DNA from: Escherichia coli
GTDB lineage: Bacteria; Pseudomonadota; Gammaproteobacteria; Enterobacterales; Enterobacteriaceae
Reading direction: 5' to 3' (one strand)
Assembly: GCF_003334355.1 (NCBI RefSeq)
Contig: NZ_QOWP01000008.1
DNA: 64,000 nucleotides
Below are positions 58,801 through 64,000 of this stretch, piece by piece. Numbering within the stretch: position 1 is the stretch's first letter; each line of letters begins with the position of its first letter. Made by a program: the position numbers.

Positions 58801-61800
58801 GGAACCATTGAACTGGACCCTAACGATGATATCGATGCCTTACCCGACGGCATCTACGCCCAGGTGGCGGTTTACTCCGACCATTTCAGCCATGTTTCGG
58901 TGATGCGGAAAGTGCTGCTAAGAATGACCAGCTGGATGCATTATCTTTATTTGGATCATTGAGGGGGAGGGGGGAGATTATGGAACTTTGCTCCTTGTAA
59001 GGACTAATTATTTTTGCATATTACTTCATTAGCTGCGATGATTTTTCTTTAATATTCATTATGTTAATAAGTTCTGGATGAGTGTGCTCTCATTGGATTT
59101 TTTATCCGTCTTGTTCTGCCGCAGGATGAGACTATACATCGTCGAGATCGCAATGATGATATGAGTTGTTCCTCCTGCGACGGCTCTAATCAAAAAAGAG
59201 CAGGAGTGCTTTTCCATCTATTGCGATGATGGCTTTATTATCTGAAGGATGACAGTCACATTTAAAAAATATTTAATCTATAGATCACAATGTAGGGTCA
59301 TGGAATATATGTATACAACTATTTTCTTCTTCACTTTTAATTATCGTATTCATTATAAAACTAAGTTAAAAAAACTCCTGGAGAGTGAGGTATTAATATA
59401 TTTTTAAATAAAATTAAGTTATCATTCATCGATGCACTTTATAGAATCATCAATGGCCATAATAGTACTATTAACTCTCAATTTTATATTTTTATCATCA
59501 CTACAAATATTAACTGAATTTATATCAATGATTTTTTTATTCTTATCTTTTATTTTATTTACTGTTTCAATGCAATCAGCGGCAAGTTGGAGTGGATTTA
59601 TATTTTTCAGATATGGTCTTATGATCTTTCCCTTACTTAATAAATAGCATGTATAGGATTCGGAAAGTCCAGCATCTATTTTGTACCTCATTATATTAGA
59701 TAAGGATGTGAGAAATTCCTTGTTATCATTCGCAGCCATATATGCCAGTCCGAGTTCAGCCTCTGCGGCCTTACAGGCAAAATAGCTTAGTGAACACGCT
59801 TTTCGTCCCTCTTTAGTACTGGCTGATATTAGTGCCCATAATATTGCTTTGTCTGCCAAATCTAACTCTCTCTGAAATTGTCTTGCAGTAACTGCACTCG
59901 CAGAAATAGAGAAAAAAATACAATTGTTAATAACCTTGCCATATTTTTTAGTCCGTAACTGTTAATGTGCTATCTGGCTCTGAAAATATTAACTCATTTA
60001 ATTTTTGCATGTCATTAGATAAACCAGTTATACAACCCTCGGAACAGAATCGAGGTCCTAAAGACGGACCAAAAGCGTTTAAACAACTATGTATTGAAAA
60101 TCCATTGCGATTATAAGTTCCTGTATTAACTGACGGTACTAATCGTATGCCGTCAGGTTTTCTATTGCTTGCTCCCGGGTCATTAACATTCCAACTCCAT
60201 AGGCCTTGAGGTATTGGCCATCTATTTATAAATGTGTACAACGGGGATTATTTTTACATTGCATATTATTACCAGAAGCGACTGGAATACTAAGCACATC
60301 ATAAAAATTATCATCACATGGTATATCTGAAACACACGAAAGCATACCTAAAGTTATGCTGTATAAACAGGTGGCTAATCCCAAGGGGATCGATTCCAGA
60401 AATCGGGTTCAACGGATACTGATAAAAATTCCACCTACCTTCCAGCCCAATCGGAGCCTGAGTGTTATACCGCCCCTGCTGCGGTTAATGTTACCGATAC
60501 TAGTTATAGTACAGCCCTGATTCATCATCATACTACTGCTGCGGCAGTCTGATGAACTATTGCTTTTACGGATTCTCCTTATTCTTCCTTCTATCCATTC
60601 GCTTTAGCTTTTTGAGCTCTTGAAGTTTGCTCTTTGCATCAATATTACCGTTATTTACAGCGAATTCCATCCAATAAATAGCTCTATTCAAATTATAATA
60701 TTCTGATAATGTTGGATTTTTATCTGATAAAAAGACCCCATAATTAAACTGCGCTGTAACATTCCCCTGAGATGCTGATCTTTCCAAGAATCGCAATTGT
60801 TTGTAAATGTTATTTTTAGTAAAGCAGTAATATTGATATAGTCGAAATGATGCCTCTGAATCACCATGTTGTGATTTATACTTCAGTTTCATCAACTTTT
60901 TTTCACTTAAATCATAGGTCATTGCTGTAGACCCCATCATACTTTCGTTTTGTTTTATTTTCACATCAGCACCATGCAATTGACAAATAAAAGAGAAATA
61001 AAAAAATAGTAACAAGCATGCTTTCATACATCTACAACCTATCTTATATCACTGGGTTTTTCTGGCGTACCTTGCATATTAGAAATGGGGTGCCCAGATG
61101 GCCCATATGTTATCCAATTACCAAGGTCTTTTGTTGTTATAGCCATTAGATCCTTATTTGAATTAAGGTTCGTTGGTGCTGTTAGCACTGTATCCATTTT
61201 TAACTTACCATTAGTTCCTCGCCCCCACCACGTCCATAGCGTGTCAGGTCCTATTACATTTGTATGTAACTCTTTAGCTAATTGGCTAGCAAATGAATTT
61301 TGTCCTTTACCTGTATTACAAGAAAATAACCAAACTGTCATCCCATCTTTATAATTCCCATCAAATTTAATTAGATATGCTAGATCTTTAGCTGTCATGA
61401 TACTGCGCGTTGCGGATTCAATAGATGTGGGGGTACCATGCCCCCCGATTGTGAAAACGCCTGGGATATTAATCTCATCAGCTACAGAATGGATAAGATC
61501 ACTTTCGGGGTATAAATTTATATCAACCAAACCTTGCGGATCTACATTTATGACCGGATTCAACGGATACTGATAAAAATTCCATCCCCCCTTCAGTCCA
61601 ATCGGATCCTGAGTGATATACCGCCCCAGCAGCGGGTCATAATAGCGGTGGCGGTTGTAATACAGGCCGGACTCCTCATCATACTGCTGCCCCGGCAGGC
61701 GGATAAGCTGCTGCAGCTGATGCGGGTTCTCTTCATTCAGCAGGTTGCCCCATTCATCGTATTCTGCGCACCATTCTGTTGTCCCTTCCTTGCTGATAAG

Positions 61801-64000
61801 GGCCAGCGGCAGGCCGCGATGGTCGCAGTGGTACAGGTGGATTTTTCGCGCCGGCGTGTACACCGGGTCCATCTGGTTTTGCATCTGCTCCACGGTCAGG
61901 CCGCACGATGCCAGCCAGCGGCGGCTTTCCTCACTCACCCGGTCAGCCAGGATTTCACTTTCCAGCCGGTCGAGCATCTGCACCGTGCCGGCGGGAATCC
62001 CCCACTGTGCATAGGCAACTCACGCTATGAACGCTTCAGCTTATCAATAGCGGAAGTTATAATTTCATTGTCATCAAACTTGTACAACATAGTATCTAAA
62101 ACAGGAAGTAGCGTTTTATCACCTAATTCACCCGCAGCTTCAATGATATCATCATAAACAGTATTTTTTTTTAACTCATCGCATAAAACAGATAAAACCC
62201 TTTTATCTTTTCTGTAGGAAAGTCCGATTATTGCTTCAATACGGACTTCCTCATTTTTATCCTGAAGCATCTCCACAAAACAATCCCTAATATCACTATT
62301 ATCATATTTATTGATATTTATTGCAAATGCGGCCCAGTTTCTGACATCTCCATTTGGATCTTTTAACAGATTAATCAATAGTGGAATTGTTGCTTTATCA
62401 TTGATAACAGAAATAGCAAATGCTGTAGCACGTCTGACATTAGTCGATTTATCAAAAGCAGTAATTTGAGATTGTTCTACTATTTTAGGTGAATAAATTG
62501 GGTTTTTCTTGCATCGCTGAGCCGTTGACTCGATTGCCGTAGCTCGAACGCAAGCGCTCTTATCATTCAATGCCATATTGTTCAAAATATTAAAAACATT
62601 ATCTTCGCATTTTTTGCAAATTTTTATTTGCCCGAGTATAAATGCTCCGATATCTCTACGGATATAATTTTTATCAGAGCAGAACTCAATTGCCAATCTA
62701 ACAGCGTCTTGCCCACCTCTTAACTGTAATACTCTGGCAGATGAAATCCTTTTCAAGGAATTGTGATCATCAAGTAAGCGAAATAATTCATCATCATTTA
62801 GTTTCTTACATTGATTATATAAACCATACTCTTTACTTGCCTTTCTTTTCTGGTATGTATTTGACATTGCAGGAACCTCCACAAGGGCTATCTTTTTTTA
62901 TCGTTTGACTGTCTGGAGTGACGACAATTCCAGGCTTTCTGTGTGCTTTTTGCATCTTTAGCACTAATATCACCACAATCAATTAGTTCCTGAAGTACGT
63001 CACATCTGTCGGGTTTTTTCCCATCACTCCAGAATCTGTCATTTATTATGTCATTGACACGATCAGTTATCCCTGTGTCTGCAACATTTCCACGAGAAGC
63101 TATCATTGTTATATCTAATGCTAGTCCCGGATTATTCAATATTAGAGAGTCAAATATTCTTTGTGATGCTGTATCGTTCCACCATTTTGTCAATGCTTTT
63201 GCAGCATTATCATCTGCTTGCTGCTGTGCAGGGCTTTTGGGCCATGGAATTGGCAAGGGGAATGGTCTAGGAAAAACTTCTAACCCCAGAGGATCTGTAT
63301 TCGTAACTGGATTCAACGGATACTGATAAAAATTCCATCCCCCCTTCAGCCCAATCGGATCCTGAGTGATATATCGCCCCTGCAGCGGGTCATAATAGCG
63401 GTGGCGGTTGTAATACAGGCCGGACTCCTCATCATACTGCTGCCCCGGCAGGCGGATAAGCTGCTGCAGCTGATGCGGGTTCTCTTCATTCAGCAGGTTG
63501 CCCCATTCATCGTATTCTGCGCACCATTCTGTTGTCCCTTCCTTGCTGATAAGGGCCAGCGGCAGGCCGCGATGGTCGCAGTGGTACAGGTGGATTTTTC
63601 GCGCCGGCGTGTACACCGGGTCCATCTGGTTTTGCATCTGCTCCACGGTCAGGCCGCACGATGCCAGCCAGCGGCGGCTTTCCTCACTCACCCGGTCAGC
63701 CAGGATTTCACTTTCCAGCCGGTCGAGCATCTGCACCAGCACCGGCGGGAACACCACACTGCCACCGTCTTCGCCGCCGGACTGCTGAAGGGTATCCGCC
63801 AGGCTGCGGCGCTGCGTTTTCGCCAGCTCACCGGTGGCGGTTTCAACTCTGATGAGTGGCGTGAAGCTCCCCGGCTGATAAATCGTCTGGATGCGGGTTC
63901 TGTCGTTCTGTATTGTGGTCAGCCGGTCGCCGTCCCAGCCGTACCAGGTCACTTGCGGTTTCCGTGACAGCGACATCCAGCCCGTCAGGTCCCGTTCACG

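Follow-up and report, generated by a model that had tools for sequence, protein, structure and literature searches.

An array of three toxin-tip and immunity modules at the rhsA locus of Escherichia coli

In a 64,000-nt stretch of the Escherichia coli contig NZ_QOWP01000008.1 (assembly GCF_003334355.1; hereafter the window), positions 59422-64000 on the minus strand are the 3' end of rhsA together with three modules, each consisting of an Rhs C-terminal tip and an immunity gene. This is very probably a polymorphic-toxin locus in which a full-length Rhs protein carries a tip with its own immunity gene and two older cassettes have been pushed downstream by recombination. The original prediction, made from the sequence alone, had proposed three successive modules after the rhsA 3' end, and all of their elements were found on the minus strand at about the positions given there; the limits of two tails were revised (RhsA, 62888-63280 instead of 62,888-63,250; the orphan, 61039-61527 instead of 61,039-61,550). 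The locus type is already known, annotated and published, and the displacement model for it was published between 2009 and 2014. What is added here is the family naming of the three tips, the linkage between the yibJ tail and YibG, population counts, and an orphan that is intact in this strain, in contrast to K-12.

The region from 59000 to 64000 is 99.7% identical to A134_1EC and 99.5% identical to K-12 MG1655, and a match of some extent to the rhsA region was present in 3893 of the 5426 complete E. coli genomes on which all population counts are based. When the RefSeq annotation of A134_1EC and K-12 MG1655 was transferred onto window coordinates, the order on the minus strand was rhsA (cut by the window end), yibA, the yibJ pseudogene, yibG, a second pseudogene and a frameshifted Imm57 gene; RefSeq labels both pseudogenes 'RHS repeat-associated core domain' and the third gene 'Imm57 family immunity protein, frameshifted'. 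The list of open reading frames (ORFs) and a six-frame translation were consistent with this gene order. The 3' core part of rhsA (63281-64000; Pfam RHS PF03527, E 9e-15) ends with the boundary motif PxxxxDPLGL, and the gene runs past the window end, so that 362 codons (62888-64000; ORF 62888-63976) lie inside. The yibJ-type orphan (61039-62007) begins with a core-end fragment at 61528-62007 that repeats the rhsA core end in direct orientation, matches Pfam RHS (E 7e-15) and ends with DPQGL; it spans about 150 codons rather than the 140 or so amino acids first proposed. A third, decayed core-end fragment (60375-60584) comprises about 70 codons with four in-frame stops and ends with DPLG. All three copies share the PxxxxDPxGL core-end motif followed by a variable tip, and an immunity ORF follows closely in each case: yibA begins 20 nt past the rhsA stop, yibG 11 nt past the yibJ stop and Imm57 5 nt past the third tip. 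The orphan is made up of the rhsA-homologous 3' core end alone, a different tip and an immunity gene, as in orphan rhs-CT/rhsI modules.

The pattern of core-end repeats is far above chance. An alignment of 470 nt between the rhsA core end (63761-63291) and the orphan (62007-61538) shows 97% identity, with the interior 100% identical and the mismatches confined to both ends. In the third copy (60584-60375), about 79% of positions match the rhsA core end across about 206 nt. Measured start to start, the copies are 1753 nt and then 1151 nt apart. The core pieces have a G+C content of 60-63% (0.61-0.64 for the 3' core part of rhsA), whereas the tips and everything else between the core pieces have 32-40%. 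Tandem direct repeats with regular spacing might be expected if the rhsA 3' end had been duplicated locally in tandem and the copies had then diverged, with no foreign tips involved, but we rejected this explanation as extremely improbable. The three tails are mutually unrelated in family (Ntox34, predicted to be all-alpha (PMC3482391); an alpha/beta clan-CD domain; and a YkuD-like domain), as are the three immunity genes (HEAT, Sel1 and Imm57), the G+C content of the tips is far below that of the core, and yibJ- and Tlde1-type tips also occur on Rhs proteins of other genera. The repeats are homologous to the rhsA core, and the tails are not diverged duplicates of one another.

Alternative states of the locus were found in other E. 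coli genomes. The junction between yibA and the orphan was present in 2948 of the complete genomes, and in 899 the yibJ tail sits on a continuous full-length core. The latter include O157:H7, in which the full-length rhs with the yibJ tail is followed by yibG, with no Ntox34 or yibA. An rhs gene with this tail has also been described in enterohaemorrhagic E. coli (EHEC), where the 2001 EDL933 sequence wrongly shows a K-12-like rhsA tip and PCR showed the yibJ tail to be fused to rhsA (PMC7216683). In HCP4S3_I4, another tip and a DUF6258 protein occupy the head of the array, leaving the yibJ tail as an orphan behind them. An E. coli metagenome contig (L010, 1-2231) carries, in order, yibA, an orphan whose Tlde1 tip is intact, an equally intact Imm57 gene and yibH, with no yibJ or yibG, indicating that the third module type is alive elsewhere and able to sit directly behind yibA. 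The comparison of tip repertoires that the original prediction had suggested thus yielded differing K-12-like, O157:H7, HCP4S3_I4 and L010 states. As a separate observation, the different head tip, the DUF6258 protein and an extra core fragment make the HCP4S3_I4 locus (L004, 8929-13621) a four-module array.

Across the window, A134_1EC and K-12, the rhsA core end varies at one position only, while the orphan core differs from the rhsA core at 14, 20 and 27 positions in these three strains. The extra differences (13 in K-12 and 6 in A134_1EC) cluster inside the repeat (61690-61881 versus 63443-63634), a pattern that looks like gene-conversion tracts of differing length. Because the repeats are nested, the tails and immunity genes unrelated, the locus states variable and the conversion pattern a patchwork, the sequence comparisons support an array in which Rhs tip/immunity modules were stacked one after another through recombination at the conserved core end, in line with the tip displacement by homologous recombination that had been predicted from the layout. 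The locus states fit both the C-terminal displacement model (Jackson 2009, PMC2935791; see also Poole 2011, PMC3150448) and the activation of orphans by deletion, as reported in Salmonella, where an orphan is activated by recombination/deletion onto the main rhs (Koskiniemi 2014, PMC3967940).

We propose the following history. The full-length Rhs would consist of a shell-forming core up to DPLGL and a small toxin tip carried after it, and new cassettes would have recombined into the conserved core end and displaced the older tips downstream. The oldest cassette would be a Tlde1-type, peptidoglycan-targeting tip with a periplasmic Imm57; this pair would have been displaced by a cysteine-protease-like tip with the periplasmic Sel1-repeat protein YibG, and the yibJ tail and YibG would in turn have been displaced by the Ntox34 tip with the cytoplasmic HEAT-repeat protein YibA. 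The long core-end repeats that were kept would let the orphan recombine, gene conversion would homogenize them, and a deletion between them would return the yibJ tail to the full-length gene with loss of Ntox34 and yibA; the arrangement expected from such a repeat-to-repeat deletion is the one that exists in O157:H7 and the rest of the 899 genomes. In this strain, the toxin in use would be that of module 1, with module 2 kept intact and silent as a reserve and module 3 dead; the yibG of module 2 would give protection from neighbours armed with the yibJ tail. The full-length RhsA of a near-identical strain matches Pfam DUF6531 as well as the RHS repeats and core domain, and long E. coli Rhs proteins have been described as PAAR-bearing (PMC7216683). 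Two points weigh against this reconstruction: that full-length RhsA has no PAAR_motif Pfam match; and the compared sequences do not order the K-12-like and O157-like states relative to each other.

Two known loci offer the closest comparisons. The K-12 rhsA element studied by the Hill laboratory is the same locus, with the same gene order, G+C-rich core, A+T-rich extensions and stacked dissociated tips, but here the yibJ orphan is intact and its core is homogenized to rhsA across the repeat interior. Salmonella Typhimurium LT2 likewise has a full-length rhs followed by an orphan tip/immunity module with core-end homology (PMC3967940); recombination between the repeats fuses the LT2 orphan tip to the main gene, whereas the recombinant-like state was seen here in E. 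coli as natural variation only, and LT2 has one orphan where this locus has two.

The tip of RhsA (62888-63280) is 130 aa long, with a Pro-rich linker of about 45 aa followed by an Ntox34 domain. It matches the full length of Pfam Ntox34 (PF15606, E 5.8e-43), and the two Ntox34 motifs GNxxD and WxCxH appear as GNVAD and WNCRH, so by sequence the tail is clearly an Ntox34 member. This family is described as RHS-borne and predicted to be all-alpha, with Imm-HEAT as its partner and no activity assigned (Zhang et al., PMC3482391). In agreement, and as had been predicted from the sequence, the tip is paired with the HEAT-repeat protein YibA (62025-62867), its putative immunity protein, which matches NCBIfam PRK09687 (E 3e-140) and is identical to 'yibA' in the Protein Data Bank (PDB), for which a structure has been solved (1OYZ). 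YibA has no export signal, indicating a cytoplasmic protein. According to Vlazny & Hill 1995, as cited in Poole 2011 (PMC3150448), the RhsA C-terminal region stops stationary-phase cells from recovering and yibA neutralizes it. No match to the RhsA tail was found among the sequences of solved structures. The homologues recovered for it were near-identical only, and for want of diverse ones its AlphaFold2 model was poor (predicted local distance difference test, pLDDT, 52.8; predicted template modelling score 0.33). The Pro-rich segment itself (63146-63280, the first 45 or so residues past DPLGL) is common to two Rhs fragments with unrelated tails, P0183 and P0184, the latter from Salmonella; it may serve as a conserved linker ahead of the toxin and offer a second site of recombination.

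The third module had been regarded as a decayed copy. Decay is evident from its stops and frameshifts, but it is a full module with a tip and an immunity gene of its own rather than a mere copy. The tip remnant (59948-60384) is of the Tlde1 (L,D-transpeptidase-like) type and carries two frameshifts, one at the DPLG boundary and one past 'NPRCTH'. Its repaired translation weakly matches Pfam Tlde1_dom (E 0.004) and YkuD (E 0.019), is 53-75% identical to intact PF10908 Rhs tips of E. coli, Paraburkholderia and Ralstonia, and keeps the motif HSC...SEGC. The neighbouring Imm57 gene (59422-59942; Pfam Imm57 PF15596, E 1e-47) is frameshifted within the region encoding the signal peptide, and the intact homologue on L010, a 131-aa protein with a signal peptide, is 85% identical to it; Imm57 is listed as a partner of Tox-LD-peptidase (PMC3482391). 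With its reading frame broken by the two frameshifts, the third tip is a pseudogene of the Tlde1 domain family, and module 3 is dead. It resembles the Tlde1/Tldi1 type VI effectors (PMC9638812) in that it aligns with Tlde1-domain Rhs tips, with the motif kept, and in that an immunity protein with a signal peptide comes directly after the intact relative, but the copy here is a pseudogene and the immunity family is Imm57.

In module 2, the ORF of the yibJ orphan is intact in this strain (314 codons, with a GTG start at 61983). Codon 234 (window position 61284) is CAG here, in O157:H7 and in most genomes but TAG in K-12 MG1655 and A134_1EC; the stop cuts the tail 12 residues past the predicted catalytic Cys, which explains why the K-12 'YibJ' entry is 233 residues long. 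One could ask whether the downstream modules are functionless debris on the way to deletion, with only rhsA-Ntox34 and yibA of any consequence. The nonsense codon in these two strains would fit that explanation, as would the death of module 3, whose stops and frameshifts are present in all four annotated genomes examined, the absence of an Rhs delivery part from the orphan, and a promoter and terminator scan of 59000-64000 in which sites were no more numerous than in shuffled sequence. We nevertheless consider it unlikely. Both the yibJ ORF and yibG are intact in the window, and yibG is annotated as intact in all genomes inspected. The tail is present in 3450 of the complete genomes, almost always in a single copy, and the 61-mer around the site of the K-12 nonsense codon is identical in 3075 of these 3450. 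The same tail is borne by a full-length Rhs in the 899 genomes described above, where it is deployed, so yibG would be useful as protection, and activation of an orphan by recombination has been shown in Salmonella (PMC3967940).

The orphan toxin tail (61039-61527) comprises 162 aa after DPQGL, and a combination of profile and structure modelling shows for it a predicted clan-CD (C80/caspase-like) cysteine-protease fold with a catalytic pair. Direct family searches had given little: no Pfam match was found even at E<=10, including none to Peptidase C80 (PF11713) or DUF4347, NCBIfam has no family for any of the three tails, and a profile of the yibJ family matched only Rhs core ends among the sequences of solved structures. 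Some RefSeq records label the orphan 'DUF8616'. An exhaustive HMMER search with the tail recovered 562 representative relatives, many of them at the C-termini of Rhs proteins and some with the domain repeated 3-5 times within giant proteins. In an alignment of 86 tail sequences the only invariant columns were His30 and Cys70 of the tail, the predicted catalytic residues at yibJ codons 182 (61438-61440) and 222 (61318-61320). Single family members weakly match Peptidase_C80, DUF4347, Peptidase_C13 and CHAT, all of clan CD, and one of the 86 matches C80 at E<=0.001. The folds closest to the modelled tail were the autoprocessing C80 domains and Tce1/Tce2, followed by gingipain, CHAT, clostripain, legumain and caspases, and its neighbours in the AlphaFold database bear names such as 'Peptidase C80' and 'DUF4347'. 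The original prediction, in which the functions of both tails were not evident, was only partly right: the RhsA tail is clearly an Ntox34 member, though of a family with no assigned activity, and for the yibJ tail the structure prediction that had been proposed pointed to the clan-CD fold. Its pairing of an orphan bearing a different tail with the Sel1-repeat protein YibG also stood.

The modelled yibJ tail resembles C80 and other clan-CD domains in fold and in the order of His and Cys, yet it would not be filed as a Peptidase_C80 member. Its identity to the C80 cysteine protease domains of Vibrio cholerae MARTX (3FZY) and Clostridioides difficile TcdA (3HO6) and to Tce1/Tce2 of the Pseudomonas aeruginosa H3 type VI secretion system (9QPE) is 13-16%, and it is shorter than these. 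It also differs in being fused to an Rhs core rather than Hcp-loaded, and in adjoining a gene for a Sel1-repeat protein that is predicted to be exported. The Tox-Caspase class of Zhang et al. 2012 (PMC3482391), which is RHS-borne, has H and C residues and is associated with Imm57 in gamma-proteobacteria, probably includes this tail already. An in-silico study of EHEC noted similarity to 3HO6 and described it as likeness to a GTPase-inactivating toxin (PMC7216683); unlike that description, the 3HO6 structure is that of the TcdA cysteine protease domain. Because certain Sel1-type immunity proteins act against phospholipase effectors (PMC7216683), a lipase was considered as an alternative identity for the tail; it was ruled out because the residue order is His then Cys and all top folds are clan-CD proteases. 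Among the giant proteins, P0024, P0027, P0028, P0030, P0033 and P0043 (3000-6800 aa) each contain three to five yibJ-like His/Cys domains, and AlphaFold-database neighbours of the domain include actinobacterial proteins with TNT, pierisin-like or enterotoxin-like domains.

YibG (60566-61027), the predicted periplasmic immunity protein of module 2, is a Sel1-repeat protein (E 2e-7 to 7e-5 against Sel1-repeat chains in the PDB) with an N-terminal hydrophobic segment, MKACLLLFFYFSFICQLHGA, that is signal-like as read by hydrophobicity. Its linkage to the tail was examined in six Rhs proteins with a yibJ-like C-terminal domain, taken from unrelated genomes and metagenomes. A YibG-like ORF lay directly downstream in all six (phmmer E 1e-15 to 7e-7), one of them absent from the gene calls, and four of the six, in addition to YibG itself, have an export feature, be it a signal peptide, a lipobox or a membrane segment at the N-terminus. 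VgrG clusters surround two of the loci; one of these has a separate PAAR gene and the other a PAAR-like Rhs N-terminus. From this conserved neighbourhood we infer that YibG is the cognate partner of the yibJ tail and that the two act outside the cytoplasm. No YibG-like neighbour was found for a seventh, non-Rhs protein (L014), a multidomain toxin with an ADP-ribosyltransferase domain, in which the yibJ-like domain may be a releasing peptidase.

We tentatively suggest, as a reading that is quite possible though somewhat short of probable, that the yibJ tail and YibG of E. coli belong to a widespread effector/immunity family in which a compact Rhs-borne clan-CD protease acts on the periplasm or envelope of rivals and is blocked by a secreted Sel1 protein. 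Such an attack on the envelope of rival bacteria would differ from the role of known C80 domains, which self-process inside eukaryotic cells. Several points count against it: two of the six YibG-like neighbours have no export signal as called; Tce1 and Tce2, the closest solved relatives, were reported as not toxic to E. coli, and Tce2 as toxic to yeast (PMC13323088); and in many multidomain toxins the Tox-Caspase domain has been interpreted as a self-releasing peptidase and not as the toxic part (PMC3482391). The last two of these points favour a different explanation, in which the tail is a self-cleaving, releasing peptidase without cargo, or an effector directed at eukaryotes like Tce2 or the MARTX and TcdA-type C80 domains, and some other role falls to YibG than immunity to it. 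The nearest folds being autoprocessing C80 domains and Tce1/Tce2, most Tox-Caspase domains being releasing peptidases (PMC3482391), and the occurrence of the domain three to five times inside giant proteins and beside ADP-ribosyltransferase domains would all agree with it. We regard this explanation as rather improbable, since in Rhs proteins the yibJ-like tail is the sole domain past DPxGL. A study of Rhs autocleavage reportedly found that Rhs cores themselves cleave at the DPxGL boundary, which also speaks against a releasing peptidase. The YibG-like protein stands next to the toxin in every one of the six Rhs loci, including those within VgrG/PAAR clusters, and most of these neighbours have export signals, as is typical of immunity to a toxin that acts in the periplasm.

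The locus remains a textbook case of contact-dependent toxin diversification, and that picture is unchanged by our analysis. The yibJ tail occurs in about two thirds of complete E. coli genomes and on a full-length Rhs in about one sixth, O157:H7 included. As a modest lead, the tail and YibG would be an easy place to look for a new envelope-directed protease toxin with a Sel1-type inhibitor. Since the K-12 orphan has a nonsense mutation that this strain and most others do not share, K-12 is the wrong background for judging the function of the orphan.

Beyond the third module, yibH and yibI come next, on the opposite strand. The interval between the yibH stop and the Imm57 remnant (58963-59421) has a G+C content of 26-33% and only short ORFs, and could be the remnant of an older module decayed beyond recognition.

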